Of a stretch of 64,000 nt of DNA, positions 47,315 to 64,000 are shown one piece after another. The DNA lies in IMG/VR virus record IMGVR_UViG_3300020577_007794; one strand, written 5' to 3'. This stretch comes from a virus. Lineage: Duplodnaviria; Caudoviricetes. The position numbers and the translations under genes were made by a program. Positions within the stretch are counted from its first letter, which is position 1; every line of letters starts with the position of its first letter. The notes below the pieces were generated by a model. It was not told where the DNA came from. It searched no databases and was given only the letters and a program-made list of their open reading frames with translations.

Positions 47315-47987
47315 TGATCCAAGTATCTATCATAGGTTTTAGGTTTTCTGAAAAGTCATTGTAAAGCTTATCATACTCCCTAAAGTTTATTATATCAAAA
47401 TCACACTCAAAATTAAGGTGTTCTTTTTCTGAAGGATTGTCGTCAATTTCTGTGGGATCATCTGGCCAGATAACTTTTACAACTTTACCGCCAAGTTTTT
47501 TCAACCAGTCATACTCAGATTGGAATCTTAGATCAGGGATAACAATTAAATTGTATCCTGGTTTAGCTGGCATATTTGAAACCCTATTTTCCCACTTCTT
47601 TATCCAGATATCTTCTCCATGGAGAGTTTTAAATGTCTGACCAAAAGAAACAATAAAAGGTCTAAACAATTCTTTTAGTTCAATATCTACACCATTTACA
47701 GATACTTTATCACGACTTAAAAACTTGTGAAGAATATCTTCATGTGAAGAGATCAATTTAGAGACTTCTTTTTGGTTAGCAAACATATTTTCTATGCCGC
47801 CATAACAAAGGGCTTTTGCTGCCCTTTCTCTAACTTCCGTTGCAAATGCAAGAGATGCTGTGTTAGGATAAAAAGACGGAAAGAAGCTCGTTAAGGTATC
47901 TTTACCCGCCCCCTTCCTTCCACAAATACCAATAATAAGAACTTTACTTGAAAATATATCCATAGTTTTAAAAATCATAACCAGCAT
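47289..47987 (-). CDS. deoxynucleoside monophosphate kinase
   Basis: IIGICGRKGAGKDT, FA, R......G, ED.W, IPDLRF..E, H/PSE. Confidence 0.85.
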   Translation of the reverse strand: MLVMIFKTMDIFSSKVLIIGICGRKGAGKDTLTSFFPSFYPNTASLAFATEVRERAAKALCYGGIENMFANQKEVSKLISSHEDILHKFLSRDKVSVNGVDIELKELFRPFIVSFGQTFKTLHGEDIWIKKWENRVSNMPAKPGYNLIVIPDLRFQSEYDWLKKLGGKVVKVIWPDDPTEIDDNPSEKEHLNFECDFDIINFREYDKLYNDFSENLKPMIDTWINERAESGF

Positions 47988-48981
47988 ATACTGCTGCTTG
48001 TCTGAAGGTTTCTGCTAGTTTAGCATAACCATACGCCTGAGCCTCTTTGTTGTTTTCTCGCATTATAGCTGCAGGATGTGTTTGGAAGAAGATCCTCCCA
48101 TACTTAGTATCTAAAACTTGTCCTGGAGCTACTCCTGCTGCGGCCACATCACTGCCTAGAAAGCTCTCTAAGGCCGGTCTACCAAGACATACGATAGATT
48201 TAGGCTGGGTCAATGCCCAGTGACAGAGAAGCCATTTCTTACAGCTTTTTCGTGGCACACTTTCTGGTGTCGTATCCTGAAATCTTATTGGATCGTAGGA
48301 TCTGCACAGAACAGAGTTAGTGATAAACCATGGCGAGACATCAACTCCAGCATAATTTGGGTTGTCCTTCTTCCATTTATTTATCCAATTCTGTCTAGGC
48401 ATCATAGTACCAAATGTTGTTAGAATTATGCCATCTATGATTGACCCCGCACTTCGCAAGTAAAAACCTTCTTTAGGTAAAGTAGGAGTAGTACTTGGAA
48501 CATTAGCGCAGATAACATGTTTAGCTCTTCTACCCCAATCATCTGGAGCTTTAAGAAGTCTATGAGAATAACATTTTTGACTTTTTGTGCATAGATTACA
48601 TCTGCTATTTACAAGTTCTTTTGGACCTACTAAAGGAATCCCTGATAGATCCTCCAAAAAGCCTGGACCTTCTCCTACAACTAGAATATCCGAACTTATT
48701 CCACCATCTGGTTGAACAACAAGTGTTCTACCTTCACACAAAGCACAAGCTTGACATTTAGTTGTTTCATTATAGAGATAGTCAAAAAATTCTTCATCTG
48801 TTGCTGGAATTTTAGTCAAATCCTCTACTTCAGCCCAGTGTTCAACAAGTTTCTTGTCCCTTAGCATAATTTTTTGCACATAGGGCGGTACTTGTTCAAA
48901 GAATAGTTTTTCTGCCTTTTTAAACTTCTTGTAGGCTTCTGCTTCCAGTATTGTGAAATTGTGTTCTATCTTGTTTTCCAT
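47968..48981 (-). CDS. family-4-like uracil-DNA glycosylase with Cys-rich insertion
   Basis: C.AC.LC..R..VV, VGEGPG..ED..G.P.VG, ITN.V.CR, C..WL, IVCLG..A, HPAA. Confidence 0.8.
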   Translation of the reverse strand: MENKIEHNFTILEAEAYKKFKKAEKLFFEQVPPYVQKIMLRDKKLVEHWAEVEDLTKIPATDEEFFDYLYNETTKCQACALCEGRTLVVQPDGGISSDILVVGEGPGFLEDLSGIPLVGPKELVNSRCNLCTKSQKCYSHRLLKAPDDWGRRAKHVICANVPSTTPTLPKEGFYLRSAGSIIDGIILTTFGTMMPRQNWINKWKKDNPNYAGVDVSPWFITNSVLCRSYDPIRFQDTTPESVPRKSCKKWLLCHWALTQPKSIVCLGRPALESFLGSDVAAAGVAPGQVLDTKYGRIFFQTHPAAIMRENNKEAQAYGYAKLAETFRQAAVYAGYDF

Positions 48982-49964
48982 GCTTGCTCGAGAAGAAAAT
49001 AAAGATCCTCCTCCCCTTCCGAAACTAAGAAAGAATCTAAATCCTGCTTAGTTTGGTTTGTTAATAGTGGTAAAGTAACTTTTACAGCGTTCGGTAGTGT
49101 TTTAGCTAAGTATTCAGCTTGAAAGGTTGATAATGAAACTTCATTAGGTTTAATTTCATTATCGTAGATTATAAAGATTCTCTGTATTTTACCTTTTTTT
49201 ATATATTTAGGCAAGTGCAATACTGCTGCAGAAGCTCCATTAATTCCATTAGTTGATGCTGCTGTAAAGCCTAAGTCACAAGCAGCAGCAGCTTTAAACT
49301 CCCCTTCAGTGATTATAACATCCCCACATAAAGGTTTGGGGCACCATAAATGCTTAGCTATCTTAGAGCCAAAAGGTATTGCATACTTTGGTTCTTGCTC
49401 AAAATCTAAAGGATCAACTCTAGTTTTGCAGCCAATTATAGAATCTTCAACCCAGTACGGGATAAAAATTCTATCAGGCTTGAGTGCTGGCCAACCTGTT
49501 ATACCACTCTTTAGTGAAGGCTTAAAAAAGCCACTAGCAAGAAGTTCTTCAATAGTAAAAACTCTTTGTAAGTGGGCCTCCACTTGGAAAGGCACTGTTG
49601 ATATTCTATACTTATCGGGGTTGTAAAGACCTCTTTCTTTTAAGTATTTTCTGTGCTCGTTGGAGAGAGTAAGATTATCACAAAGCCAGTGTAAAACTCG
49701 TAGATGCATATTATGATCTACTCTAGTTCTACTTGATGTTGTCTTAGAAGCAATTAAAGGTTTCTCACCTTTACCAAAAAAGCAGACAAAACAATAAAAT
49801 ACTCCAGCATCTAAACTTGCAACCAGAGATTTATGGCCGCATTTAGGGCAGATAAACTTTATTTCGGAACCAGTGTTTGACACCGGTGTTCCAAATTTTT
49901 TTATTAGTTCGTCTTCTAAGCTGTTTACCATGTTTTTAGGGAATCTAATGGATACAGTTCCCAA
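48966..49964 (-). CDS. DNA primase (Zn finger plus TOPRIM)
   Basis: CPKC...CFVC, YL..RGL, ITEGEFKA, IYDNE, K.DLD.FL. Confidence 0.85.
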   Translation of the reverse strand: MGTVSIRFPKNMVNSLEDELIKKFGTPVSNTGSEIKFICPKCGHKSLVASLDAGVFYCFVCFFGKGEKPLIASKTTSSRTRVDHNMHLRVLHWLCDNLTLSNEHRKYLKERGLYNPDKYRISTVPFQVEAHLQRVFTIEELLASGFFKPSLKSGITGWPALKPDRIFIPYWVEDSIIGCKTRVDPLDFEQEPKYAIPFGSKIAKHLWCPKPLCGDVIITEGEFKAAAACDLGFTAASTNGINGASAAVLHLPKYIKKGKIQRIFIIYDNEIKPNEVSLSTFQAEYLAKTLPNAVKVTLPLLTNQTKQDLDSFLVSEGEEDLYFLLEQAWKTR

Positions 49965-50191
49965 GTCTGTTTAGGTGTTTCTATAAATTGCGGAAGGCTG
50001 TCATGTTTAACTTCTCGAGTAGACCATTCTTGAGTTGTTTTTTGTCCACCTATCGGGTAGTAAACATAGCCGTCCTTAAAAAAGAAAATTGCAAGGGCAA
50101 CTTCATGATCTAATTCATATGTTTCTAAGATTCGAAACCAGTTGTATTGAAGGGTTAGTGTTTCGGAATTAGTTTGCTTAACCTCAACCAA
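49925..50191 (-). CDS. hypothetical protein
   Basis: 88 aa; start uncertain. Confidence 0.4.
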   Translation of the reverse strand: MVEVKQTNSETLTLQYNWFRILETYELDHEVALAIFFFKDGYVYYPIGGQKTTQEWSTREVKHDSLPQFIETPKQTWELYPLDSLKTW

Positions 50192-50231
50192 CCTACTTCG
50201 CCCATTAATGGCATCTCCTCTTATAAATTTA

Positions 50232-50274
50232 TTGCCAGAACCGGGGGTAATTTTACCCCCGATAAGTCTGGCAA
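50232..50274. repeat. nested inverted repeat (long hairpin) in an intergenic gap
   Basis: ttgccaga..cgggggtaa-tt-ttacccccg.....tctggcaa; the T-tract follows on the plus strand. Confidence 0.7.
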
Positions 50275-50297
50275 CTTTTTGTTCTGCTGTCTTCCAG

Positions 50298-50504
50298 TTA
50301 GGAGTTATTTTTAAACCCCCTTTTGATGTCAGAAACTATTCTTTTATGTGCGAATTTACTCGCAGTTGAAGAACTTACAGTTGTAATAATTTCTTTACCA
50401 CCTGAATTTTTGCATTTCAATATGTAGTGTTTCTTATGTCGAAGGACTTCAATAGTTATTTTTTCTTTTTTTAAGACATCTTGTATTTCTCTTAAAAATT
50501 TCAT
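50298..50504 (-). CDS. HicA-like small basic protein
   Basis: 68 aa alpha-beta-beta-beta-alpha pattern with KHY in the hairpin; TVS.S.......I.SDIKR. Confidence 0.45.
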   Translation of the reverse strand: MKFLREIQDVLKKEKITIEVLRHKKHYILKCKNSGGKEIITTVSSSTASKFAHKRIVSDIKRGFKNNS

Positions 50505-50514
50505 TTAACTATTA

Positions 50515-50955
50515 TCAGCCTTCGTACTTAGTTATTTCTACCTTTAGATATGGTTGGTTTTGTTTATGCTTATCTGCTTCTGACTGAGAAGATTCAACAA
50601 AATACTCAAGAACTTCTCCTGAATTGCTTTTAATAAAAGACATTAATTCATCAGAAGTCAGCTCTTTTATGTTTAAATCTCCATCATCACTATCATACGC
50701 AGGAGAGTCATCAAAGAAATCAGAGTTATCATAAAGGTAATCTGTTATCTGGCCATAAAGTACAACCTTCTCTTCACCCTTGGTGATATTCTTAAAGTCA
50801 TCTGTTTCTTCAATTTGAAGAAGTTGTGCTGATAAAGTTTCTTTCAAAAGCTCAAAAGGTATAGGAGAGCTTTCTTGATCAGAGTAAGGTGTTTTCCCAC
50901 CAAGTACTGATCTAAGTGTCATTAATAGGGATCTTAGTTCTTTCGTCATTATCAA
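50515..50955 (-). CDS. hypothetical acidic protein
   Basis: 146 aa ORF. Confidence 0.55.
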   Translation of the reverse strand: MIMTKELRSLLMTLRSVLGGKTPYSDQESSPIPFELLKETLSAQLLQIEETDDFKNITKGEEKVVLYGQITDYLYDNSDFFDDSPAYDSDDGDLNIKELTSDELMSFIKSNSGEVLEYFVESSQSEADKHKQNQPYLKVEITKYEG

Positions 50956-51428
50956 TACCTGCTACTACTATTCCTTAGAGTCATTATTCTATTCAGAAGG
51001 TAGGATCCTTTTTTCTCTAGAAGGTCTTCTAAACCTTCCAAAGAAGAACCAGCCTTTCTAGCATAGTACTCTCTAGCGTCGTGTGCAATAGGTTTTTTCT
51101 TTACGTCATCTGCTGGTGCTTCCAACATCTTAATATAAAGGTCACTTTTAGTTCTTCTAAAAATAGCTTTACATAGACCAGAAATATCAGCATGAGCTTC
51201 TTGAAGCATAAATAGATGTTCCAGCAATAATTCTGGGTCTTCTCTATGTTCAATTTCGTAAAATCTAGCAACCGCTATTAACCAGTTATTAGCTGAAGGA
51301 AACAACAGTTCGTCTTGTATTTTTATAAGCTCTTCTGGTGTAGCATCTCTGCTAGCAATAAGAGCCTTAAAAAAGGTTGTTGAGGGCGGGAGTTTAACTC
51401 CCATAATTTCTACGTTCTTTTCGCTCAC
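50952..51428 (-). CDS. hypothetical helical protein (possibly a UvsY-like mediator)
   Basis: All-helical, next to the helicase; the family call is weak. Confidence 0.4.
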   Translation of the reverse strand: MSEKNVEIMGVKLPPSTTFFKALIASRDATPEELIKIQDELLFPSANNWLIAVARFYEIEHREDPELLLEHLFMLQEAHADISGLCKAIFRRTKSDLYIKMLEAPADDVKKKPIAHDAREYYARKAGSSLEGLEDLLEKKGSYLLNRIMTLRNSSSRY

Positions 51429-52483
51429 TTAGCCTTCCTCCCCTTCCATAACTCATAATAAGATGTATATGATATAGGCGGAATAGGGGTCATTCTACAG
51501 GATCCACTATTAAGGATCATAAACAAAGGATAGTCCCACTCAGAAACTTTAGTCTTATGGACTTCTAAGGTTAGAATTGGGTGAAGATCACCGACTTCAT
51601 CCTCCCACATTAAAGGATCAGATAAAGCATTTTCTCTATACTCATTTCTAGCAATCATAATAGAGACTGCATCAAACTCCATATTGGAAGTACCTTTTAT
51701 GTCTTGAACGCTTGGTCTTTTTTCTAATGATTTTCTAAGATGAGATGAAAGAAAGAGTTTAACCTCATATTCTTCAGAAGCAGATTGAAGCCTCTTCAAC
51801 ATTTCGTTATATATCTGAAGCTCACTATAACCTTTAAGGCTTCCTGTATCTAGGTTATTCCATCCATCTACAAAGAACACAAGTTTAGCTGAAGGGAATT
51901 GACTTCTATATGTTTTCATTTTTCTAATGATAACATTGAAATCTCTAACATTTACCCTAGCTTTATTAGGTACAGTTTCAACATGACTAAATGGTACTAA
52001 TCTACCAGAACTAACCCAGTCAAAGAACTTGTTTCTAGCCTCTTCATACATAGAAGCTTTTACTGATTTTAGTTCACCTACTTGAGCAATATCTATAAAA
52101 CGTAGACCGCTTATATTTGCTATGATTTGTTGAAGCCTTTTTCTAGGAGGATCATCAAAAGAAAAGTCTAAAACAATAGTATCTTCATTTGATTCTAAAA
52201 CACCAGTCATTGTCGAAACAAAGGCAGTTGATTTACCTGCATTTGCTCTACCAGCAAGGCATAGAATTCCCGAAGTATAGTCATTCAAAGCTTGATCAAA
52301 GGTGGGGACACCATCAGAGAAATTTCTCTTTGGTATTCTAATGATTGAATCATTTTCCCCAGAATCAAAGTAACTCATATGAGGCTTTCCGGTACTATTT
52401 TTTACCATCTTTTCCTCAACTTCTAAAAATTTATTAACTAAAAAGTCTGTATCAACATAATCTATCGCTGTTGGATCGTTCAT
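51425..52483 (-). CDS. dnaB: DnaB-like SF4 replicative helicase
   Basis: LAGRANAGKST, FS.D, VD...L, SHL.K....RP...DIKGT...E.DA. Confidence 0.85.
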   Translation of the reverse strand: MNDPTAIDYVDTDFLVNKFLEVEEKMVKNSTGKPHMSYFDSGENDSIIRIPKRNFSDGVPTFDQALNDYTSGILCLAGRANAGKSTAFVSTMTGVLESNEDTIVLDFSFDDPPRKRLQQIIANISGLRFIDIAQVGELKSVKASMYEEARNKFFDWVSSGRLVPFSHVETVPNKARVNVRDFNVIIRKMKTYRSQFPSAKLVFFVDGWNNLDTGSLKGYSELQIYNEMLKRLQSASEEYEVKLFLSSHLRKSLEKRPSVQDIKGTSNMEFDAVSIMIARNEYRENALSDPLMWEDEVGDLHPILTLEVHKTKVSEWDYPLFMILNSGSCRMTPIPPISYTSYYELWKGRKAK

Positions 52484-52953
52484 TTAGAGATTCGTTCTTC
52501 CAAAATTAAGCGTTTTACATTAGTTATTGCAATTGGTGCATAGTCTAGTATAGAGAGTATACTTGGTCTTTGATTCTTTTTAGAGTCTGAAGGGACTATT
52601 TCGTCTATAGAGAAAAGAACAACATCTAATCCTAGAGAATTTACAGAATTATAGATGAAGTCAATTTCTTTTTGATCAGGTTCTTTCTCAGTTTCTAATA
52701 ACTTCTCTCTCTGTGTTTTAAGATCTTCTTTCGAAATATGAAGACCTAATGGGGATGCTTCCTGGTAATTAAATGACAGAATAAAGTATGCCCAAAGATC
52801 TTGCACTGTATAAGATGTTTTTCTATGAATAATGTTCTTATCCATATACTTTAACTGCCTATGAAGAAAGAGTGTTTTAGAGGGGCCAGAATCCGATATG
52901 AGGTTATCATCTAAAGATGCCATATTTTTTGCACTCAGCATTAAGAAGGTCAT
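52480..52953 (-). CDS. hypothetical protein upstream of the helicase
   Basis: 157 aa; ATG 52923 may be the true start. Confidence 0.5.
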   Translation of the reverse strand: MTFLMLSAKNMASLDDNLISDSGPSKTLFLHRQLKYMDKNIIHRKTSYTVQDLWAYFILSFNYQEASPLGLHISKEDLKTQREKLLETEKEPDQKEIDFIYNSVNSLGLDVVLFSIDEIVPSDSKKNQRPSILSILDYAPIAITNVKRLILEERISK

Positions 52954-53029
52954 AATCTTCTTTCAAAGAAGTAACCTCCTTACTTAGCTCAGCTATCCTC
53001 CATATGAGAGTCTTCTGGTTTAGTGTCAT
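52907..53029 (-). CDS. small coiled-coil protein (40 aa, not in track)
   Basis: MTLNQKTLIWRIAELSKEVTSLKEDYDLLNAECKKYGIFR fills the gap between neighbours. Confidence 0.35.
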   Translation of the reverse strand: MTLNQKTLIWRIAELSKEVTSLKEDYDLLNAECKKYGIFR

Positions 53030-53291
53030 CTGGTTCTGAGAATTGTTTAATAAATTGTTCTTCTTGTGAGTCTTCAATTTTCTCATATTCTTGATTTTTC
53101 AAAGGCTTACCAACATGATAAGATTTACAGCAAACACAATAAAATACACGAGATTTTCGTCCTGCGTCCCCCCTTCTTGCTATTAGTTTTTTTCTATTCT
53201 TAATAGCATCCGCTTTCGTAGGAAATTTTGCTTTCTTCTTACACACAGATGGTTTTTGGTTAATATAAAAGGAAAAGAGTGAGGAATTCAT
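52989..53291 (-). CDS. small Zn-binding phage protein
   Basis: C..K..F.TK..A ... Y.C..C..YH. Confidence 0.55.
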   Translation of the reverse strand: MNSSLFSFYINQKPSVCKKKAKFPTKADAIKNRKKLIARRGDAGRKSRVFYCVCCKSYHVGKPLKNQEYEKIEDSQEEQFIKQFSEPDDTKPEDSHMEDS

Positions 53292-53297
53292 AGGTAA

Positions 53298-53618
53298 TTA
53301 ATCAATAACTTTTTTTTGAAGTTTGTCAAATATGTTTGGAAATGGATCGCCTTTTAAGTCATGAACAAATTGCCCAGCAATATCCATAAGGTCTACATCA
53401 TAGAGAGGTTCTAGCAGTTTCCTTGGTTCATAAATTTGGGCCTTGTATATGCCCTTGCAAAAAGTACCAATGATGATACCATCAGTACCTTCCTCCATTT
53501 CTAACATTTCGTCGTCAAGGGGAATAATAGTAAATTGTTCTTTTGTTGATCTGTCTTGGACTATTACCTCCCCTTTACTTGTATGTGATACAATTGAGCC
53601 GATTATAACAAATGTCAT
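53298..53618 (-). CDS. hypothetical OB-fold-like protein
   Basis: Beta-strand pattern IIGSI ... IIIGT. Confidence 0.45.
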   Translation of the reverse strand: MTFVIIGSIVSHTSKGEVIVQDRSTKEQFTIIPLDDEMLEMEEGTDGIIIGTFCKGIYKAQIYEPRKLLEPLYDVDLMDIAGQFVHDLKGDPFPNIFDKLQKKVID

Positions 53619-54070
53619 GCTGTGGATTCCAGAGACTTAGCCCATTTCTTAAGACCTGCTATTAGAGCTGTTGTCTGCAACATAGTATACCCTTTAGCAG
53701 AGGTATTTATCTTTTCAATACCTAAAGTCTCACAAAGAATATTAAGCTCTTTTTGTTTATGCTCATCACATGGACTTTGAAGGAGTTTAAGAGTTTCTTC
53801 GTCTAGAAGATTTCCTTCCTTGTATCCCTTCATTACTGCATCTTGTGTAAGAGAAATAACAATGTCAGGATAGTGATTTTTATTAGCCACTTCTAGTTGA
53901 GATTTACATTTTTCAACTGCAGTATCCATGGCTTTTTGAATATCTGCTTCACTATCAGAAGTAGCAATGGCAAAGTTAGATACTGTTTCTGTGCCCTCAG
54001 AGCACTCAACAGTAACAACTATCCCACCACCACGCATTCTCTCAATTGGGTGAGGTAATCTAATTATCAT
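53615..54070 (-). CDS. hypothetical protein
   Basis: 151 aa ORF. Confidence 0.55.
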   Translation of the reverse strand: MIIRLPHPIERMRGGGIVVTVECSEGTETVSNFAIATSDSEADIQKAMDTAVEKCKSQLEVANKNHYPDIVISLTQDAVMKGYKEGNLLDEETLKLLQSPCDEHKQKELNILCETLGIEKINTSAKGYTMLQTTALIAGLKKWAKSLESTA

Positions 54071-54829
54071 TTAAAATCCTTTCGCTAATACTTTTGCAAG
54101 AAAAGCCCAAAAACCTTTTTGTGTCACTGGGCCGTAATTGAAAACTTCTGTTTTCTGTTTGCCATTTTCTACTTCTAAGAAAGCACTCTCAAAGCCAGGA
54201 GACAATCTCCCAGTAAAATGGGAGACAAAATGTTCACTTTTGCCTTTCCCACCTTTCACTAAGATTTGGTGGCCATAAAGTTCTCTGTCATAATAGAACC
54301 TCTTTCCAAAACTTAAAAAGATCCTTTCTCCCCATAAGTCAGTAGCCTTGTACTTTTCTCTCTCTGCGGCTATAACAGTGTTAAGCGGATTGATCTTTCT
54401 TAAAGAAACCGCCGTCTGTTCTAAACTTCCCCCATCTGGCATCAGGCTCCCTTGATCAAAGATAAATATTATTGGTTCACCAAATTCTTGAAAAATAGCT
54501 GAAGCCAGTTCTATGACAGGGAGATGCGAAGAAGGCTGCACAAAGATAAAATTGTCTGTTTTTATATGTTGAGTCCGATCTGAGTTAAGATTTTTATTTA
54601 CATCAACATATACAACAAGGTTCTTTTTTGAAAAGTGTTCTGCAATTTGCAGACAGAAAGCTGTAATACCTACATAGGGTTCACCTTTTACAAGAGTGAA
54701 CCCACCAGATTGCAGGTGTACAGCTCTGTCAATTAACTTAGACCCTGAAGTAGAAGATCTAATCTCCTTCAAACCTTTCTTAAAAAGTTTATTATATAGG
54801 TTGCTCATCGTCTGTTGAAGGGAAATCAA
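54071..54829 (-). CDS. RecA-fold paralogue with degenerate Walker A
   Basis: ID....L..G..T...GEPYVGIT.FCLQ.A, VVYVD, IFIFD; Walker A Lys replaced by Ile. Confidence 0.7.
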   Translation of the reverse strand: MISLQQTMSNLYNKLFKKGLKEIRSSTSGSKLIDRAVHLQSGGFTLVKGEPYVGITAFCLQIAEHFSKKNLVVYVDVNKNLNSDRTQHIKTDNFIFVQPSSHLPVIELASAIFQEFGEPIIFIFDQGSLMPDGGSLEQTAVSLRKINPLNTVIAAEREKYKATDLWGERIFLSFGKRFYYDRELYGHQILVKGGKGKSEHFVSHFTGRLSPGFESAFLEVENGKQKTEVFNYGPVTQKGFWAFLAKVLAKGF

Positions 54830-55172
54830 TATCTAAGAAAGACATAACATCTCTGTGTTTCCCATTTACAATTGTTACCTTAGAGGGTTTATTTACTCGA
54901 CCGCTATCTTTGAAATAGGCTGAGTGAGCAGTTTTCCATATCTCTACCAAGCCATGGAAACAGTCATCTACTTCATCACTATCCTTTACCATTAAACTCT
55001 TTGCCTCAATAGTAGGAAGGTTTGTGTCTAAAGTAACTGTGTAACCAAATCCAGATTTAGTAGCAGTGAGTTTAAGATAAAGACCCCCATATCCAAAAAC
55101 AGTCTGCTGTTTACCAGTAATATCAATAGGGGTTTCGGTTAAATGTTCGTCAGGATTACTACTCAATATCAA
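54792..55172 (-). CDS. hypothetical protein
   Basis: 126 aa ORF. Confidence 0.5.
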   Translation of the reverse strand: MILSSNPDEHLTETPIDITGKQQTVFGYGGLYLKLTATKSGFGYTVTLDTNLPTIEAKSLMVKDSDEVDDCFHGLVEIWKTAHSAYFKDSGRVNKPSKVTIVNGKHRDVMSFLDIDFPSTDDEQPI

Positions 55173-56511
55173 TTATCTCCCCAAATGGAAAATCTTTGTA
55201 ACCATTTTTAGCTCTTACCCAAATAACAGGGTACTCGGGTTGTTCTGGAAAGTCTCCATAGCCATCTGTAAAATAGACAAATACTGACGGAGGCGCAATC
55301 TCTCCGTTTTCATACAGCTCATTTACATAAGTAATTGGCGGAACAAAAGTAGTGCCGCCCCTACCAGCTATTGAAAATTTTTCCCAGTTAATATCCTGCG
55401 AATCATCATAGACTTTAACGTCACTGATTGCATAGTCACATTGAATAACTGTTAAAGTCATAGGGTAGGTATCTCTCAAACCTTTCAACTCACCCAAAGC
55501 CTCTGAAATATCCCTGTCCGACATTGAACCAGAAGTATCTAGAGCAACGTAGACATTGTAAACAGGCTTGGGATCTAAGAGTGGAAGGATAGCAATATGA
55601 GCTTTTCTTGAATTTACTCTAAATGAGAAATCTTCCTTAACTATGCTTTGTTCAACAGAAGATCTCAATCTTCTTGTCCAGGAGATCTTAGGAGAGAAAA
55701 GGGCACTAATGTACATTTCAACCTCACCTGGACAAGAGCCTGGAGTAGAAGAATGATTTTGGGAAATTCCGCTTACTCTGGTCAAAAAGCTGGTTCTATC
55801 TGTAGACAAAGAAGAAGAATCTGCTTCTGGATCTTCTAGTGTATCGAGAAATTTATCACCAAAAGCCTCCGCCGCTATCTTTAGTTTTCCAGCATCAGAG
55901 CCTTGAGAAGCCTTAATTAGGCACTCGTAAATATAGGGCCAATCTGCATTTAAAAGACCTGGAATTTTGATGGAGTAAAAAGTATCAGAACCTGGGATCC
56001 CAATTTCTAGGACATCAGTATCTGATCCTATAAATACACCACCAGCAATATCAGTTCTAATTGCTTCCTTATAGGAAGAAAACTTGCCACCCTTGTCACA
56101 AAGAATTCTGTTAATAACAGCGTCCATTGCAATATTTTGAAGCCTGTGGTTATAGGCATTACTTGCTGGGTAGGAGCAGTGCCCTAACGATGGATGTAGA
56201 AGCTCGTGACACAAAAGAAACAATCTTGTGTCAGATTTTAGTTCTGGATAGCTCTTACAGCCATTTTTTCTTCTAGAGGAGTGGATTGGGTTGAAGAAGA
56301 TTTTAGTATAGGTGACTCCAGCAATAGGAATTTCTTGGCTTGCATTAAGAGAAAGCCCCATAATAATCATGCCAAACCATGGATGTTGAAGAAGAAGCTG
56401 ATTTCTGTCACTGGAATATGTTTCCTTAATTGCCCTAAGCTCCTCTGGTGTAGCATCAGGTGCTTTATTTTCCGGTTTAGTTTCTACTTTTTCTAACGTT
56501 GCTTCATCCAT
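55159..56511 (-). CDS. DUF2201-type metallopeptidase-vWA protein
   Basis: HELLH zincin motif, NIA.D..IN; DTSGSM MIDAS, QCD, GRGGT.F, YFTDGYG, PV.W. Confidence 0.85.
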   Translation of the reverse strand: MDEATLEKVETKPENKAPDATPEELRAIKETYSSDRNQLLLQHPWFGMIIMGLSLNASQEIPIAGVTYTKIFFNPIHSSRRKNGCKSYPELKSDTRLFLLCHELLHPSLGHCSYPASNAYNHRLQNIAMDAVINRILCDKGGKFSSYKEAIRTDIAGGVFIGSDTDVLEIGIPGSDTFYSIKIPGLLNADWPYIYECLIKASQGSDAGKLKIAAEAFGDKFLDTLEDPEADSSSLSTDRTSFLTRVSGISQNHSSTPGSCPGEVEMYISALFSPKISWTRRLRSSVEQSIVKEDFSFRVNSRKAHIAILPLLDPKPVYNVYVALDTSGSMSDRDISEALGELKGLRDTYPMTLTVIQCDYAISDVKVYDDSQDINWEKFSIAGRGGTTFVPPITYVNELYENGEIAPPSVFVYFTDGYGDFPEQPEYPVIWVRAKNGYKDFPFGEIIDIE

Positions 56512-56758
56512 TGTATAGTTCTCCTTTTTGGATAATGTCTTCTACACTATCTTCATCCTCAATGACTTTTAAGGAAATAAATCCAGCATCATAGGCCTTA
56601 AAAAATGCTTTATCATTACCAATCTGTTTCCTAAGAAATTCTTTGCCGATTTCTTTATCAACAAAGTATACCATCTTATTGTTAAAGACTAGTATGCTTT
56701 CGGGATAGTGCCCCTTATTTTTATCTATAACGGGCACTATTACTACTTTGTTGCTCAC
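56504..56758 (-). CDS. hypothetical protein
   Basis: 84 aa between the AAA and vWA genes. Confidence 0.55.
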   Translation of the reverse strand: MSNKVVIVPVIDKNKGHYPESILVFNNKMVYFVDKEIGKEFLRKQIGNDKAFFKAYDAGFISLKVIEDEDSVEDIIQKGELYNG

Positions 56759-56760
56759 AA

Positions 56761-58026
56761 TTATCCGGTCCTAGTATTAGCAGTACTTGCAAGAATGTTA
56801 ATCAACTCCCTCCAAGACTTAAACTCTTCGGTAGTATTAGTAATCTTTCTGATTGTATTAATAGCCGCCTTGCTTTGAAGTCTATGTACAAGAGTAATAA
56901 AGGCTACGTCTGCATTGCCATCCTTATAGGCTTTGAGCATCCAGTCACCAATATTCTTGAGAACCTTTCTGTCTTCCTCAGTCAGCATCGAAGCATTAGG
57001 TTCAACCTTCTTCTGCTCTACTATCTTTTCTAGATAGCTTCCCATCTTGCTGATTCGGAATGCAAATTCACCGCAAGCCATGTACCATACATCCATCTTC
57101 TCTGAGGACGGTGCTGCCGGACTGTGACCTGCACAAACACTCTCAATATTGAGCGAATCAAGAGTTTTGCAGAATTCTAGGAAGGGTCCTGCAGCTCCTG
57201 CGCCAATTGTTCCAGAAACAATTGAAGGTGTTAAAGGTGACTTAGCCCACTCCGTAAGAGTTCCTGGCCAAGCCTTGATAAAAGAACTTACCTTATGCCA
57301 CGTTCTTGGATTATGATAAGTAACCAGGTCAGCAGGTGGATTAGGGTGTTGGAAGTAAGTACCGTGGTAATTTTCCAGAAAACCAAGTACAACACCTGAG
57401 ATTTTTTGAGTTTCGATACCCCATGTTCGCCATTCATCATATGTCAAATTAATGTTAATAGTTGTTAGTCGAGTTTTTACGTTTGATGGTGTATCGTAAG
57501 TAGCAGCGTTATCCTGCTTTCTGTTTCCAGATGTGATAATAAGAGTTCTAGAAAAGTCTAGGGTATTGTCACCAATAACTCCGTCAATGATATTAGCAGC
57601 AAGATTTTGCATACTCTTTGGTGCTTGTGGCATTTCATCAAGGTGAATTACCACAAAATCAGCTTTGCCAGAAGTTGGACATCCTACTAGAGGAAAAACT
57701 TCTGGAGAAGCAAAAGTACACATTTGTTTTCCGTCAACTTCGATAAAGCAGGGAACACCCTTCAAGTCTGTAGGGTCTGCCTGGTTTAGTCGAAGGGAAT
57801 ACAAAGCTGTTGTACCAAGCTGTTGATCTTCTCTGACTTTACGAAGTTTCTCCGTAAACTGTTGAACAATACTGGTCTTAGCATTGCCAGGTGCGCCGAT
57901 CAGATTCATAACGCATCTTTCACCCTCAGTCCTTTCGACATCATAAGCCCACATTAAGGCTTGCGCAGCCTCTCGGCCAGTCATTGTGTAAGTTGCTTCT
58001 TGTTCGATTTTAAGGGAAGTGCTCAT
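56761..58026 (-). CDS. MoxR/dynein-related AAA+ ATPase
   Basis: GAPGNAKT, DPTDL.G.P, LDE..QA....Q, GNR..D.A, P....R, PRTW. Confidence 0.88.
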   Translation of the reverse strand: MSTSLKIEQEATYTMTGREAAQALMWAYDVERTEGERCVMNLIGAPGNAKTSIVQQFTEKLRKVREDQQLGTTALYSLRLNQADPTDLKGVPCFIEVDGKQMCTFASPEVFPLVGCPTSGKADFVVIHLDEMPQAPKSMQNLAANIIDGVIGDNTLDFSRTLIITSGNRKQDNAATYDTPSNVKTRLTTININLTYDEWRTWGIETQKISGVVLGFLENYHGTYFQHPNPPADLVTYHNPRTWHKVSSFIKAWPGTLTEWAKSPLTPSIVSGTIGAGAAGPFLEFCKTLDSLNIESVCAGHSPAAPSSEKMDVWYMACGEFAFRISKMGSYLEKIVEQKKVEPNASMLTEEDRKVLKNIGDWMLKAYKDGNADVAFITLVHRLQSKAAINTIRKITNTTEEFKSWRELINILASTANTRTG

Positions 58027-58304
58027 TTGTCTAGTTTGGTCTCAATTGTGATTTTATCAATGGTTGGTGGATGAATAGTGGAAGTGTGCTGGTTGCCGCA
58101 AGCACATTCCCAAACTGTGTCTATTGTTTTTTGTTCTTTATCGTCGAAGTCTTCTTTCGTTAGTTCGTTGACATGCTTTCCAGCAGTTTCAACAAGACAT
58201 TCGGTATGGATAAGTGCGGGCGTATATGCCCCGCAAGAACATGTAATTTCAGATCCCTCACAGTGGAGGAAACTTTGACAGTGTAGTTTTAGATTTTGAC
58301 GCAT
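58023..58304 (-). CDS. small Zn-ribbon protein
   Basis: CSCG ... CACG. Confidence 0.5.
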   Translation of the reverse strand: MRQNLKLHCQSFLHCEGSEITCSCGAYTPALIHTECLVETAGKHVNELTKEDFDDKEQKTIDTVWECACGNQHTSTIHPPTIDKITIETKLDK

Positions 58305-58501
58305 TCTAAGAGTATGTCTCCGTTGCTCATTTTAGTTTTATGTGTACAAATTAGAAAGAAATTATTAAGAGAAAAAAGAGACTGGTTTTCTACATCGAAA
58401 TCCTTCTCAAAAACAGTTGTCTTTGCAGTAAGCAAAAAACCATCATGAAAAGGTACAGCTCCCCTTATTATCTTTATAGCTTCTGAATTGGGTGTGCTCA
58501 T
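58289..58501 (-). CDS. hypothetical protein
   Basis: 70 aa; coupled ORF. Confidence 0.45.
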   Translation of the reverse strand: MSTPNSEAIKIIRGAVPFHDGFLLTAKTTVFEKDFDVENQSLFSLNNFFLICTHKTKMSNGDILLECVKI

Positions 58502-59121
58502 TTTTCTAAATACTTCTCTATTCTTTCTATTCTAGGAATTATTTTTTCTGAAAATTTAGTCAGCTCAGATGATTTGTTTCTAAAAAACTTAGCCTTAATA
58601 TCTTCCAAACTACCATTATCAATAAGACAGGAAAGTACTAGAGGAGCTACTTTTAGGAAAAATTTGTCTTTATTAAAAACTTTATCGTAGTTATTGTTAT
58701 TTATAGAGTTAACTCTCTTAAGAAGTTTTTCTAATTCTGTCTTTTCGTAAACAGCTTCTGTAAGAGTTTCAACCATTAAAGGTTCTCTCAAACAATTTCT
58801 GTAAGTTTCTTCTGAATAGGTACTTTTGCAGGTATAAAGTTCTACAGTTTGCTCTGTCAAACCGTTTGGGACCCAGTTAGGCTCAACGGCTAGGTATCCA
58901 GGTAGAGTAGAACGAGTATAGACTTTATTAGCCATTCTAGTAGCACACCTCTTCAAATAATTATAAGGATCACCCTGTAAAGAATCTGAAGAAGAAGCTT
59001 TTAAAAGATTACCATAGACGATAGAAACAGCATCATCGCAGACATCCAGATTAAATCTAGATTTAAAATTTGCACTGCGGACTGCGGCTTCCGCCATTTT
59101 AAAGAGCTTCGGGGGTTCCAT
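58498..59121 (-). CDS. ECF-sigma region-2-like protein
   Basis: DDAVS.VY..LL......P.NYL.R.A.R.A...; start moved to ATG 59121, after the terminator. Confidence 0.45.
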   Translation of the reverse strand: MEPPKLFKMAEAAVRSANFKSRFNLDVCDDAVSIVYGNLLKASSSDSLQGDPYNYLKRCATRMANKVYTRSTLPGYLAVEPNWVPNGLTEQTVELYTCKSTYSEETYRNCLREPLMVETLTEAVYEKTELEKLLKRVNSINNNNYDKVFNKDKFFLKVAPLVLSCLIDNGSLEDIKAKFFRNKSSELTKFSEKIIPRIERIEKYLEK

Positions 59122-59373: not shown

Positions 59374-61770
59374 TTAGTAAAGAGTATCGTCACTAGGATG
59401 CAAAGCTTCCCACAAATCATTTAACATAAGTTGATAGTGTTCATCTGTAAAATCTTCTTTTGAAGACTTAGGATGAATCAACTTCACTTTTGTGTAGATA
59501 GCGCAAAGAAATGCGTAAGTGTTTAGATACCCACAATCAATGATTAAGAAATCAAGAAATTTCTCAACCTTATCTTCGAACCTTTCATAGACTTCCGAAT
59601 AAGAAAGAACTTCCTTATTTGGTCCAACAGGGAGAGAGCTGGCACAATCTGCGAGATACATAAGATTATCCTCCACATTTGGGTATGGATATTCGAACTC
59701 TGCATTGCAGAAATTCTCAGCAAAATAGGCAGCTATCTTTCTAATTTGGGACGATGAATATTTGAGATCACAGTTGGTTAAGTCAGTTTTTTTTAAACCC
59801 AAGGTTTTTAAAAAATGAGTAAAACCTTGCATCAGAGGATGGGCACCTTTCTTAGAAAGACCAATCCCACCAGCTGCTTTGAATCTCTTAATATCACCCG
59901 AAGCATATCTAAGAGCGGTATCTATCGTAGTAGTCGAAGTATCCATTCCAGAAGGTTTCTTGGCTGAATTCTTCTTTTGGCTGTTTTGAAAAGGGGTTCC
60001 CGATTGGGGGCCTCCTTCGGATGACTTATATCCACTATTAGAAGAGTTCTGCCAACTATAGGATTTTTCGACACTAGTTTTAATAAGGTTGCCCTCATCA
60101 TCCTTACAGTTGGAAATATCAAGAATATCGTTAGTACCTTCTGTACCAGCTGTTGTTGGTGGATCTACAAATCTATTACAGTTTTCGATTCTATCGTAAG
60201 AAAGTGCAATATACCAACCATTGCCTTTATATCCCCTAGGAGAGGAATAACTAGCATGTCCCAAACCAGCAGCCCAAGTTGTTGAACCTGAACCACCATT
60301 CATAATAACAAGTGGAACTTTCGGAAGTTCGTCCACATACTCAAAATCCCAAGAAGACGCATTAAGAAATTCTCTAGCTTCTTCTGGAAGAGAGCTTAGG
60401 AATTCTTCATTAGATGCATCTCGAGTCATTTGAGCAGTTGGATTAATACCTAGTACCTGCTGCCATTTAAGAGTTTCTGGGAATGCAGAAGTGCCCTTTC
60501 TACAGTAAACCTTCTTAATACCAATACCGTAAATAGATACAAGATCATTCAATACAGTAATAGTGTGCTCCTGTGGAAGACCGTTAGTTGTAATTAACGG
60601 ATGAGATTTATACCACGAGGCATCATCAGAGTCAATCTTAACACCTAAGATCGAATCTAAGAACTTTGAGGTAGCATCATAGGCACACATTAAAGGATTC
60701 TTAGAAGTATCCTTTTTCCAAGCAGTATGCTCAGGTTTAATGGTAAAGACTTTTGACAGTTGACCATCAACCGTCTCAGATTCATAGCTTATCTTAGCCA
60801 TGGCTTTATCCATCTCATCTTTGTTAAAGTAAGTTGGATAGAGGATATTTCCGCCATACACCTTAAAATACACCTTTGTATTATATGATGTGGAAGGGGT
60901 GGACTTAGATGAGCTACTGCTAGTGGTAGGCTGGTAGTTCATGTCCTGACCACCATCTACATAGCTCTTAATAGTACCATTAGGCACTAGAAAATCCTTA
61001 GCTAAAGCCAAAGCTTCCTTAGGAAGATCCGATGTTTTAATGAAATCTACAGAGTAAGTATTTGACTCAGCATTATAGTAATTAACCTTCACTAAGTTGC
61101 TGCTAAATCCTAGAGGAACATACTGCTTGTCTAGGAAAAGAACCTTACCAGATTCATAAATAGGGAGAGCCTTTGGTGTTGCTGGCTTATCACCATCCTT
61201 AATTGGGGTGAGAACTTTGAAGATTTGATTTGACCAGGCATTGACATAACTACCGCCATCAACAATCTTCGCAGTAAACCCCTCCTCCTTCCGATTTATT
61301 GCAGTAACAACAGCTGTCTTTCCAAAACCAGACCACGAACCTGTGTAATCACCAGGGTTATCCCTGAATATAACATGATCCCCAATCTTAAGGTTTTTGT
61401 AGTACATAAAGGAGTTTTGATCTAATTCAAACTTCTTCTCTATTACAGATTCCTCAACTTCTTTGGAAAACTGCTCTTCAAAGATATCCTCAATTGCCCT
61501 CGCAGTCAGTTCTCCAGGATTTAAAACAGAGTTGTCCTCTGTCAACTTCTTGATTGTGTTTGGAGAAACTGATGTATAAACTTCACCAGTTGGTGAAGAA
61601 TAGGTAAGATAAATTCTATCATTCTCAAAGAAGCTTGCTATTTTTGCAAGAATTGGTGTCTTTGAATGTTCCGGCGTGTAGGTTACGTCTTCTTCTAAAT
61701 AGAAAGGCTTACCATTAATAATTTTCATTCCAGGAGAATCGTTACTCACTTGGTGCTCCATTAGGGTCAA
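59374..61770 (-). CDS. multidomain protein with putative papain-fold (C39-like) cysteine peptidase
   Basis: LMC362AYDA..K.L...LG ... NG ... ELP.VPLVI ... GH505; SH3/KOW-like segments N-terminally; S/T-rich linkers. Confidence 0.5.
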   Translation of the reverse strand: MTLMEHQVSNDSPGMKIINGKPFYLEEDVTYTPEHSKTPILAKIASFFENDRIYLTYSSPTGEVYTSVSPNTIKKLTEDNSVLNPGELTARAIEDIFEEQFSKEVEESVIEKKFELDQNSFMYYKNLKIGDHVIFRDNPGDYTGSWSGFGKTAVVTAINRKEEGFTAKIVDGGSYVNAWSNQIFKVLTPIKDGDKPATPKALPIYESGKVLFLDKQYVPLGFSSNLVKVNYYNAESNTYSVDFIKTSDLPKEALALAKDFLVPNGTIKSYVDGGQDMNYQPTTSSSSSKSTPSTSYNTKVYFKVYGGNILYPTYFNKDEMDKAMAKISYESETVDGQLSKVFTIKPEHTAWKKDTSKNPLMCAYDATSKFLDSILGVKIDSDDASWYKSHPLITTNGLPQEHTITVLNDLVSIYGIGIKKVYCRKGTSAFPETLKWQQVLGINPTAQMTRDASNEEFLSSLPEEAREFLNASSWDFEYVDELPKVPLVIMNGGSGSTTWAAGLGHASYSSPRGYKGNGWYIALSYDRIENCNRFVDPPTTAGTEGTNDILDISNCKDDEGNLIKTSVEKSYSWQNSSNSGYKSSEGGPQSGTPFQNSQKKNSAKKPSGMDTSTTTIDTALRYASGDIKRFKAAGGIGLSKKGAHPLMQGFTHFLKTLGLKKTDLTNCDLKYSSSQIRKIAAYFAENFCNAEFEYPYPNVEDNLMYLADCASSLPVGPNKEVLSYSEVYERFEDKVEKFLDFLIIDCGYLNTYAFLCAIYTKVKLIHPKSSKEDFTDEHYQLMLNDLWEALHPSDDTLY

Positions 61771-62482
61771 TGTAGAAAGTCATTTCTTTCCAGTAGTTCA
61801 TAGAATTAATACTTGTCTTCCAAGTAGAGAAAAGGCCTCTTTCTGCAACATTTTCACCATCACTCATAAAAGTCTTAGTGTTGTCACAACCAATGGAGAT
61901 AAAGTAAGCAGTGACTGCAGCCATGGCTGTATTTCTAATCAACTGCCTAAAAGCATTAAGCTGGCACGGAGGAAGTTTAACATCAGGTGCCTCCTTCAAC
62001 TTAGCCTGCATATCAGGTGAAGTATTTTTAGGAGACAACGAGAAGGAATCCATTTCTTTATAATTCCAACTTACTTGGCCATTTCCATCAGTAGCCATTC
62101 CTGCGTGCAATACTGGAACATTAAGAGCCTGTCCAGCTGTCCATAGAAGAACACGAGTAGGATAGTTATCTACTACGTCAACAATAGTTGTATTCTCATC
62201 TACTTCCAGTAGGGACTCCCAATTCTCCTCAGTAACCTTTTCTGTTACTGCTTTCGCAGTAATAAGAGGAAACTGTGATATTCGGTTGATAACGCTCTCT
62301 GCTTTCAAAGTTCCAACTTCTGAAGGAAGGAATCCTTGAGAAGCCAGATTTCTCTCTTCAATAGTGTCGAAATCAATAAGTGTTATTTGAAGTGGCATTT
62401 GTTGAGCAAAAGCTCTCCTGGCAGCTTCAATACAGAAGTCTTCGCCAAGAGAGCCAGCCCCTACTACAATTAGTTTATACAT
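61742..62482 (-). CDS. ThiF/MoeB/E1-like adenylating enzyme
   Basis: VVGAGSLG, LIDFD.IEERNL..Q, VG..KA, IVD.VDN...R, PVLH; candidate thiolation Cys173 (LPPC); no Zn CxxC. Confidence 0.9.
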   Translation of the reverse strand: MYKLIVVGAGSLGEDFCIEAARRAFAQQMPLQITLIDFDTIEERNLASQGFLPSEVGTLKAESVINRISQFPLITAKAVTEKVTEENWESLLEVDENTTIVDVVDNYPTRVLLWTAGQALNVPVLHAGMATDGNGQVSWNYKEMDSFSLSPKNTSPDMQAKLKEAPDVKLPPCQLNAFRQLIRNTAMAAVTAYFISIGCDNTKTFMSDGENVAERGLFSTWKTSINSMNYWKEMTFYIDPNGAPSE

Positions 62483-62490
62483 TTTGTTCT

Positions 62491-63927
62491 TTATTTCAAT
62501 AGTTGTTCTAGTTTAGCGAGCTTAGCTTTATTACTGACACCATTAGTTGTCATAATACCTGGAAGCTCACTACCAGTCTTTTCTCTGTACCTGCTAGCAA
62601 GAGAACCTAGTGTCCAAGTAAGAAGGGAGTTTCTTCTCTGCATAGGTGAAGATAGGTCGTAGCCTCGATGATAGTTATGAGAACCATTTCGTTCACACCA
62701 CTGAGGATTGGCAATATACATAAGCGGAGCCCATGGTTTCCAATCGCTAGGAAGAAGGTCAGGTCTATATTGACTAAAAGCTTCTCTTACTTGTTCTTCA
62801 GTAGCAACAAGAACGTGGTTTCCAGCTAAAGGATCAAGACCACCAACAGTATAGTGAACAGCCCATGCCCTGCCAATGTAAATTACTGCAGGACTGACTA
62901 CGCTTCCACTTACATCATGGCCAGCCATCTTTGTATTTTCAAAGATCTTCTTGCCAAATTTAGGGTGATTGAAGGCATCCTGCGTAAGCTCCCATCTCTT
63001 TTCACCTGATTCGTCAGATACATACATAATGTATCTTTGAGAGATGTCAGTAACTTCTACATCAGGAACCAAAGCTAGTTCTTGTTTTACAATTTCAAGA
63101 ACCCTTTCTCTTTCTTCAAAATCAAGTTCACATTTATGTGAATACACAGTAACCCAGCTTGAGATTCTTCGTGCTGGTAGAGAAAGATATTCACTAATTT
63201 GTTTGTCTGTAAGCTCACCAGGCTTTGGAACCCTAAATGACTTAAGATCCAGGGGACTTACAGCAAGCGGATTTACTTTTGTTTTTGTTTGCAGATAACT
63301 AGAAACGTAGTAATTAGAAACACCAAAGATTTCAGTGATAAGATTAACAATTTCTACACCTACATTGTAGACTTCAGAACCAGTATTATGTGACTTCTTT
63401 CTAAATCTTACTCTGAAGCCAGGATTTTCCTTAGAAATCATATCATTTTGAAAATCCAATTCTTCAGAAACTTCTTCAGAAGTTTGAGACGTATAGTTTT
63501 CTACTATCCAGTTTACAAAAATTGAAGCATAGCCTGAATTTGCATATGGAGAAATAATGTTTAAGAATTGAGAAACATTTGCCTCGGGGAATTTCTCAAT
63601 AAATTCTTCTCTTATTGCTGAGTAGTTTTGTGGTGTAAGGTTTGGTTTTTGAGTCGGCTTTTTAACCTTACATACACCCTCCTCCACGGAAATATGAGAA
63701 AGATCTAGGTTATGTAGATTAACTCGTCCAGAGGGTGCGTTTTGAGAATAAAACCTAGCAGCTAGTACACTAGGAATTCCAAACTTTTTCTCAACAAATT
63801 CTTTAGGTAGGGTTAAAGCGAAAGAATAACCACCTGATGACAAAGCTCTTGTATTATATGCCGGAGCCCCCCAGAAGTGGTTTTCTTTGAAATTCTGAAG
63901 TTTTTCCTTAAGGTCAATAGTTTTCAT
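62491..63927 (-). CDS. hypothetical protein with possible C-terminal E2/UBC-like domain
   Basis: PLMY....WC411 ... YD.S ... LLTW....LA..Y resembles prokaryotic E2 active-site spacing; directly upstream of the E1. Confidence 0.4.
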   Translation of the reverse strand: MKTIDLKEKLQNFKENHFWGAPAYNTRALSSGGYSFALTLPKEFVEKKFGIPSVLAARFYSQNAPSGRVNLHNLDLSHISVEEGVCKVKKPTQKPNLTPQNYSAIREEFIEKFPEANVSQFLNIISPYANSGYASIFVNWIVENYTSQTSEEVSEELDFQNDMISKENPGFRVRFRKKSHNTGSEVYNVGVEIVNLITEIFGVSNYYVSSYLQTKTKVNPLAVSPLDLKSFRVPKPGELTDKQISEYLSLPARRISSWVTVYSHKCELDFEERERVLEIVKQELALVPDVEVTDISQRYIMYVSDESGEKRWELTQDAFNHPKFGKKIFENTKMAGHDVSGSVVSPAVIYIGRAWAVHYTVGGLDPLAGNHVLVATEEQVREAFSQYRPDLLPSDWKPWAPLMYIANPQWCERNGSHNYHRGYDLSSPMQRRNSLLTWTLGSLASRYREKTGSELPGIMTTNGVSNKAKLAKLEQLLK

Positions 63928-63949
63928 TTGGGTTTATAAAAAATAGAAA

Positions 63950-63975
63950 TTTGGCTGGGGGAAACCCCAGCCAAA
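63950..63975. terminator. GC-rich hairpin between the cut-off upstream gene and 62491..63927
   Basis: tttggctgggg-gaaa-ccccagccaaa; the minus strand continues tttctatttttTATAAAcccaaATG. Confidence 0.7.
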
Positions 63976-63979
63976 AAGA

Positions 63980-64000
63980 TTACTTACCCCAAACAGCAGT
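63980..64000 (-). CDS. 3' end of a gene running in from beyond the window (...TAVWGK*)
   Basis: act gct gtt tgg ggt aag taa just before the hairpin; the frame cannot be fixed from 21 nt. Confidence 0.35.
   Translation of the reverse strand, partial: TAVWGK

Follow-up and report, generated by a model that had tools for sequence, protein, structure and literature searches.

A four-gene phage cassette that may encode an uncatalogued ubiquitin-like conjugation pathway

Introduction

Can a bacteriophage own a complete system for activating one protein as a tag, attaching it to others and removing it again? The question is raised by four adjacent genes at the right edge of a 64,000-nucleotide stretch of viral DNA (hereafter the window) from a member of the Caudoviricetes, IMG/VR virus record IMGVR_UViG_3300020577_007794. 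They encode a protein that ends close to a conserved Gly (the candidate tag), a ThiF/E1-type adenylyltransferase, a protein whose C-terminal domain carries a conserved Cys in the motif CERN, and a papain-like peptidase. To our knowledge, prokaryotic ubiquitin-type tagging has so far been characterised on the cellular side only, in Bil, in Cap2/Cap3 of the cyclic-oligonucleotide-based antiphage signalling system (CBASS), in Bub and in archaeal and Thermus tags derived from sulfur carriers. Literature searches turned up no phage-encoded E1/papain cassette. Here we argue that the cassette is, on balance, probably a phage-borne and uncatalogued pathway of the ubiquitin-like (Ubl) type, in which a protein is conjugated through its C-terminal Gly.

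The window covers bases 54193-118192, on the minus strand, of a 194,459-bp record that is estimated to be 84% complete. Adjoining DNA was read from bases 40000-59000 of the record (L002). Other genes present include virion-structural, ribonucleotide-reductase, clamp-loader, DnaB-like and recombinase-like genes. A preliminary description of the window, made by reading the sequence, had proposed a cassette of Ubl, E2-like protein, E1 and papain-fold protease.

Results

Three tightly linked minus-strand open reading frames (ORFs) had been reported at the window edge, and all three are present at the coordinates given (Table 1). A gap of 8 nt separates the 478-aa and 246-aa ORFs, and the 246-aa and 798-aa ORFs overlap, the latter opening at a TTG inside the stop region of the ThiF gene, its exact start being uncertain. 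Immediately upstream of the 478-aa gene, and mostly past the window edge, lies a gene for a 163-aa protein, the candidate tag; a terminator-like hairpin stands directly 3' of its stop codon.

These four genes travel together. Hidden Markov models of the four genes match all eight of the divergent phage loci that were verified at the DNA level (the locus described here, L003, L006, L007, L008, L009, L010 and L082), and gene tables of two further contigs list the same gene sizes with a ThiF call. The synteny check that the preliminary description recommended thus finds the cassette in ten divergent contigs, all from uncultured phages. The genes stand in a different order in L008 (tag, E1, CERN protein, peptidase), which indicates that the genes stay together through rearrangement. 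The main copy of the CERN protein is always directly adjacent to the E1, and even members of its family that match at E values of 1e-6 to 1e-10 still keep the cassette neighbours. The flanking genes vary among loci and include ribonucleotide reductase, helicase, SLT and S24 peptidase genes.

The cassette is phage-restricted in every search done. Neither blastn of the region nor tblastn of the two unrecognised domains found a match in 50,697 GenBank phages, a scan of GTDB genomes with the CERN profile found no relative, and a scan of IMG/VR with the ThiF protein found nothing. The ThiF profile recovered 71 bacterial relatives from GTDB, aligned over the N-terminal half only and at no more than 38% identity; a tag, CERN or peptidase gene neighbours none of the 71.

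On sequence grounds, the 246-aa protein is a member of the ThiF/E1 superfamily. Its match to Pfam ThiF (PF00899) scores 66.6 bits, the cut-off being 28.1 (E 2.4e-18), and the same model is matched by the orthologues from L007 and other contigs. It scores under every NCBIfam equivalog cut-off (the PRTRC ThiF model, for example, gives 41.7 bits against 144.75) and is therefore not ThiF, MoeB, TcdA, UbaA or the PRTRC protein proper. The residues G8xG10xxG13, D37, N45, Q49, K60, D105 and R110 are invariant in all seven orthologues compared and align to Uba1. Equally invariant (7/7) is the Cys of LPPC173, and there is no CxxC, because the protein has only three Cys (C17, C173 and C199). In each of these respects the earlier reading of this gene as an E1 with LPPC173 and without a zinc CxxC is borne out. 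Against PDB sequences the clade profile matches the active adenylation domains of Uba1/UBA6 at 9e-11, E. coli ThiF at 9e-10 and MoeB at 2e-8, so that Uba1/UBA6 rank only slightly above ThiF/MoeB; these alignments end at residue ~137, short of C173. Weak PADLOC matches link the E1 half to E1-E2/BilD models (4e-7 to 6e-4). The window had been said to lack thiamine and molybdopterin genes; in the 194-kb record, at 84% completeness, no Pfam match to ThiS, rhodanese, cysteine desulfurase or Prok-JAB was found.

The nearest cellular relatives of the ThiF protein are ~212 aa long and occur in cyanobacteria, Acidobacteriota and Bacteroidota. Two cyanobacterial loci (L014:4055-8570 and L017:5583-8576) place the gene beside a 477-aa protein with a von Willebrand factor A (vWA) domain and an unannotated protein of 274-294 aa, and may represent an uncharacterised ThiF-vWA module.

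What would such an E1 activate? The 163-aa protein ends ...TGTAVWGK, and its C-terminal (V/Q)WG is invariant in eight of eight orthologues that otherwise share 29-85% identity. Five of the eight end exactly at WG, two carry one more residue (K or N) and one, in L082, carries 37 more. An invariant terminal Gly followed by dispensable extensions of variable length points to a modifier that is matured by proteolysis and activated at the Gly. Complex prediction also associates the two proteins. For the E1 dimer with the tag, the outcome was classed as supporting binding, with a score of 0.63 against 0.15 for the best of three controls; 58 of 80 solved complexes attain this mark, as do 2 of 110 mismatched pairs. 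At least 53% of the contacts recur between runs, and the partner has a predicted local distance difference test score (pLDDT) of at least 69. The confident contacts join the E1 helix 115-121 and the long loop 142-159 to the helical middle of the tag (residues 58-98).

A peptidase that could perform such maturation is encoded in the same cassette. The 798-aa protein has no Pfam (including Peptidase_C39), PHROG, NCBIfam or PADLOC match, and the profile of its core matches no PDB sequence. Its seven homologues have in common only residues ~300-560. In naturally short orthologues, of 430 and 501 aa, the sequence starts with the core, which suggests that the N-terminal 295 aa are dispensable. Within the core, C362, H390, H505 and D526 are invariant (8/8). 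An AlphaFold2 (AF2) model of residues 296-565 (pLDDT 84.6) opens a helix (67-80 in model numbering) with C362 and sets H505 at the start of a strand (210-214) and D526 on the following strand (224-232); the loop just before H505 (199-208) has a pLDDT below 50. Foldseek used alone gave weak rows for PLpro and PCAT1. The top structural matches of the core are bacteriocin-processing double-glycine C39 domains, and the aligned ranges place C362 on ComA Cys17 and PCAT1 Cys21, which we take to be the catalytic residues. The by-eye assignment of a papain/C39 peptidase with C362 at a helix start and H505 on a strand thus holds in the model: the core is predicted to be a papain/C39-like fold with C362, H505 and D526 as conserved residues of a putative Cys-His-Asp triad.

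Directly before this core, a segment of ~58 residues (296-353 of the protein; window 60712-60885, minus strand) is modelled as beta-beta-alpha-beta-beta-beta, a pattern reminiscent of the Ubl domain in front of coronavirus PLpro.

A word-indexed search with the 478-aa protein found only the protein itself, and a full HMMER scan (cut-off E<=1e-3) recovered 44 cluster representatives, aligned mainly over residues 250-478. The C-terminal motif quoted in the preliminary description is present, and its Cys proves nearly invariant: C411 is at least 90% conserved across 43 family sequences, sits in the conserved context (D/Q)WCERNG and is retained in 20 of 20 copies compared at the phage loci (8/8 main copies and 12/12 paralogs). 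Y350, G352, A354, R413 and W438 are also near-invariant. Just upstream in each phage are one to four further paralogs of the CERN protein, the Cys included (here copies of 311 and 216 aa), which differ in all but a small core and have varied N-terminal domains.

This domain had been likened to E2/UBC enzymes from the spacing of its residues, a likeness that was not recovered. The AF2 model of the CERN domain is confident (pLDDT 91.2) and has no significant structural match in PDB or BFVD, including Foldseek and repeated wide searches. The family profile shows no E2 relationship among PDB sequences; 0 of the 44 family members match Pfam models of the UBC clan (UQ_con, Prok-E2_A-E, UFC1, Atg3/10 and RWD/UEV); the E2 models of PADLOC and NCBIfam do not match the protein; and comparison by hhalign with a Prok-E2_D alignment, drawn from Bacteroidota genomes, puts the family at a probability of 0.3%. 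An HPN motif is not present upstream of C411, although some true E2s (UFC1 and Atg10) also lack it. A rhodanese reading of the sequence CERNGS was dropped, the confident model showing no rhodanese-like match. Membership of the UBC/E2 superfamily is therefore not supported, and the proposal survives as a functional one. Because no UBC relationship was detected, an E2-like step rests on genomic context and one invariant Cys, and we regard it as plausible and somewhat doubtful. Of the cassette originally proposed, the E1 and the papain-fold protease stand, the Ubl place is taken by a Gly-ended tag candidate past the window edge, and the E2 membership is not supported.

Discussion

The observations made here support the assignment to the E1 family, a papain fold with conserved triad residues and a Gly terminus with variable extensions; they also support strict linkage of the four genes, and modelling supports binding of the tag by the E1. 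These features are most readily explained by a pathway of the following kind. The tag, of ~160 aa, would be made in its mature form or as a precursor with 1 to 37 additional C-terminal residues, and the peptidase (C362/H505/D526) would cut after the Gly to expose the tag end; it would probably also strip the tag from conjugates. The minimal ThiF-type E1 would adenylate the exposed Gly and probably hold the tag as a thioester on C173. The tag would then pass to C411 of the CERN-domain protein, which would act in the manner of an E2 or of an E2/E3 hybrid and deliver it to targets, and the one to four upstream paralogs, with their different N-terminal domains, may accept the tag as well. We judge it likely that the E1 activates the tag and the peptidase processes it. 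The scheme taken whole, with adenylation, thioesters, E2-like transfer, deconjugation and delivery to targets, is what we infer from these features, and we give it a cautious preference.

Several observations weigh against this scheme. The tag profile matches no Pfam or PDB sequence, the protein is about twice the size of a typical Ubl, and it ends in WG instead of GG, single-Gly termini being known from ATG8, ATG12 and UFM1. The confident part of the predicted E1-tag interface excludes the C-terminal tail of the tag. The canonical Arg of the E1 motif NLxRQ is Ser or Ala in this clade, in which an invariant R44 sits four residues, or one helical turn, before the canonical position. The CERN domain has neither a detectable UBC fold nor a sequence relationship to UBC proteins. 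All of the relatives come from uncultured phages.

A more specific and more speculative version of the pathway takes these departures at face value. It would be a phage-restricted, non-canonical Ubl system in which the WG tag is not a simple beta-grasp protein, Cys carriers of an unseen fold are analogues and not homologues of E2s, and a C39-like enzyme is both maturase and eraser, with target choice left to the variable N-terminal domains of two to five carrier paralogs in each phage. We think this version possible, with the balance tilted against it. If true, the E2 step would have arisen here independently, and this would be the first tagging system of such a kind to be owned by phages.

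The main challenge to conjugation through a Cys carrier comes from systems that need no E2. Ubl conjugation without an E2 is established for SAMPs and Urm1 (PMC9574740), and an E1 and tag in the style of archaeal SAMP/UbaA or Urm1/Uba4 could act here too, leaving the CERN proteins as targets, adaptors or regulators and the peptidase to process the tag. Such an arrangement would account for the lack of any UBC fold or profile signal in the CERN domain and for paralogs that vary in everything save a small core. A Cys that is kept in 20 of 20 divergent copies together with several conserved polar residues nevertheless looks catalytic, more than a mere target would, and the main copy always lies immediately beside the E1. 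We therefore consider E1-only activation or conjugation unlikely, if the strongest of the alternatives.

A second alternative is that the cassette moves sulfur, in the manner of ThiS, MoaD or TtuB, with a tag thiocarboxylate feeding a phage-specific thio-modification of a nucleotide or cofactor and the peptidase serving only to unmask the Gly. The small, ThiF/MoeB-sized enzyme with its single conserved Cys would suit this role, and sulfur carriers unmasked by proteases are known (CysO with Mec+ and QbsE with QbsD). The sulfur partners are missing, however: the 194-kb record, 84% complete, has no rhodanese, cysteine desulfurase or ThiS-family match, and a sulfur-insertion enzyme is linked in none of the ten contigs. 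The carrier would be a protein of 160 aa ending in WG, the E1 profile is marginally nearer to Uba1/UBA6 than to ThiF/MoeB, and a multi-paralog family of Cys-domain proteins would be left with no role. This makes a sulfur carrier quite improbable.

Phage restriction of the module in every search invites a different kind of explanation, namely that it intercepts or reverses host Ubl immunity such as Bil or CBASS Cap2/Cap3. The peptidase would strip host tags off phage proteins, with the phage's own tag and E1 acting as competitors of the host machinery. Bacterial Ubl systems do target phages (PMC10097602 and PMC10557695). Beyond the generic Rossmann half of the E1, however, the four proteins are unlike the Bil and Cap components, and a deconjugase alone would do for such a purpose. 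That the tag, the E1 and the Cys-domain protein are all strictly retained speaks for a pathway that is autonomous. As the explanation of the cassette we hold this decoy role to be very unlikely; it is a hypothesis about biological role that is compatible with, and not exclusive of, the chemistry of the conjugation pathway.

Least probable is a maturation system for a ribosomally synthesised and post-translationally modified peptide (RiPP) or microcin, yielding a secreted or toxic factor instead of a protein tag: MccB-type ThiF enzymes do act on peptide C-termini, and the top structural matches of the C39-like peptidase, which would trim a leader or follower, are bacteriocin-processing domains, but the 'precursor' is a conserved, folded 160-aa protein that ends in Gly and not Asn, the site where it would be cut is conserved and lies at the very C-terminus, with nothing to trim in most orthologues, and an ABC exporter, YcaO or immunity gene is not linked in the contigs examined.

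How, then, does the proposed conjugation pathway compare with known ones? By analogy, its logic resembles the eukaryotic UFM1 (UBA5-UFC1-UFM1-UfSP) and ATG8/ATG12 (ATG7-ATG3/ATG10-ATG4) systems more than Bil, Cap2 or PRTRC. The cassette differs from these eukaryotic systems in that its tag, carrier and peptidase have no sequence relationship to theirs, the tag is ~160 aa, the carrier lacks a detectable UBC fold and the whole is encoded by a bacteriophage. With Bil (BilABCD), CBASS Cap2/Cap3 and PRTRC it shares a ThiF-type E1, a tag, a candidate Cys-dependent transfer and a deconjugating or processing peptidase, all in one operon. In contrast to those systems, its peptidase is papain/C39-like where theirs is a JAB metalloprotease (no Prok-JAB was found in the record), there is no recognisable Prok-E2, the tag does not belong to the small Prok_Ub or ThiS-like proteins, and the genes are borne by a phage and not by a defence island or plasmid.

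ThiF-ThiS and MoeB-MoaD have in common with the cassette the fold and size class of the E1 and, by prediction, adenylation of a Gly terminus. The cassette differs in having neither sulfur-transfer partners nor a zinc CxxC, in a large partner that ends in WG, and in its association with a Cys peptidase and a family of Cys-domain proteins. Compared with the C39 domains of PCAT1, ComA and LahT150, the peptidase core is not fused to an ABC exporter and shows no sequence similarity, and its cut site would be at the C-terminus of a folded protein, whereas theirs follows an N-terminal leader. A further bacterial parallel is Bub, a diverged Ubl pathway with a tag made by proteolytic cleavage and a peptidase that is not JAB (Ye et al., bioRxiv 10.1101/2024.11.21.623953, PMC11601596). 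The cassette would share with Bub the processed tag and the non-JAB peptidase. Bub is reported to have oxyester (Ser) intermediates, an E1 without a catalytic Cys and a Ser-His protease (PMC11601596), whereas here the E1 (C173), the carrier (C411) and the peptidase (C362) each have a conserved Cys.

If the pathway operates as proposed, the phage owns a complete writer-and-eraser set. The E1 alone belongs to a catalogued family, the other three parts falling outside all of them, and a papain/C39-type protease stands in the place where prokaryotic systems normally use JAB. Should the Cys domain truly carry the tag, the E2 step would here be solved by a new structure. The cassette is compact (four genes, with short natural versions at L008 and L082), and nature supplies processing substrates ending in WG, WG plus one residue and WG plus 37. 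The chemistry can thus be tested in E. coli, despite there being no cultured carrier phage.

Additional features of the locus

Table 1. Positions of the cassette genes, candidate catalytic codons and an associated signal. Coordinates are those of the window unless another sequence is named.
Feature	Position	Strand	Remarks
3' end of tag gene (T-A-V-W-G-K-stop)	63980..64000	-	last six codons within window
163-aa tag gene, whole	G000:C1:53722-54213 = L002:13723-14214		mostly past window edge
Terminator-like hairpin	63950..63975	-	11-bp stem, 7 GC pairs, T-rich tail; predicted by consensus scan
P0001, 478-aa protein	62491..63927	-	N-terminal half variable, C-terminal Cys domain conserved
CERN domain, residues 225-478 of P0001	62494..63255	-	AF2 model; candidate thioester carrier
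Cys411 codon (motif WCERNG) of P0001	62695..62697	-	position verified; 8/8 main copies and 12/12 paralogs
P0002, 246-aa ThiF/E1-type adenylyltransferase	61742..62482	-	Pfam ThiF 2.4e-18
Cys173 codon (LPPC) of P0002, candidate E1 catalytic Cys	61964..61966	-	7/7 orthologues; position verified
P0003, 798-aa multidomain protein with papain-fold peptidase core	59374..61770	-	
Papain-like (C39-like) peptidase core, P0003 residues about 357-535	60166..60702	-	
Cys362 codon of P0003, putative nucleophile	60685..60687	-	helix N-terminus; invariant 8/8
His505 codon of P0003, putative general base	60256..60258	-	GHA motif, strand start; invariant 8/8
Asp526 codon of P0003, putative third triad member	60193..60195	-	YD, next strand; invariant 8/8

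Within the window, on the other side of the cassette from the tag gene, a MoxR-like ATPase (phrog_1297, 2e-45) lies beside a DUF2201_N/DUF2201 protein, a vWA-like putative metallopeptidase (55159-58026, minus strand), with an 84-aa gene between the two. The DUF2201 protein matches phrog_1314, for which the PHROGs label 'HNH endonuclease' looks like a misnomer. The pair had been suggested to handle tagged substrates, a partnership that we rejected: its place behind the cassette is confined to close relatives (L003, probably also L007 and the 3300059473 contig), the flanks of L006, L008, L009, L010, L082 and ERZ1426598 do not contain it, and so it is not conserved beside the cassette outside that group.

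Cell-wall enzymes show a recurrent yet loose association with the cassette. A 3D-domain (MltA/Rpf-like) protein with a hydrophobic N-terminus is encoded just upstream of the CERN paralogs (L002:11511-12020), and likewise in L003, and SLT lytic-transglycosylase genes lie just downstream of the cassette at L006:7750-8112 and L009:12684-13109.

Past the right edge of the window, nine small genes in tandem (86-137 aa) make up a single paralogous family (L002:6601-9432, equivalent to G000:C1:46600-49431), with an approximate motif GK(I/V)VxF(K/R)GxxY(F/I) and ends of the form ...LE(A/P/E)(I/V). Further along, a 261-aa ORF (L002:3245-4030) matches the class-II alanyl-tRNA synthetase core (PF01411, 1.6e-16) in its N-terminal part only, over profile positions 50-139, and is a truncated AlaRS-like fragment in a phage. 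Downstream of the cassette in the L008 contig (IMGVR_UViG_3300010885_025649), a Thy1 (ThyX) gene is interrupted by an intein with an HNH domain and adjoins a gene for a 1204-aa Phage_tail_beta protein.

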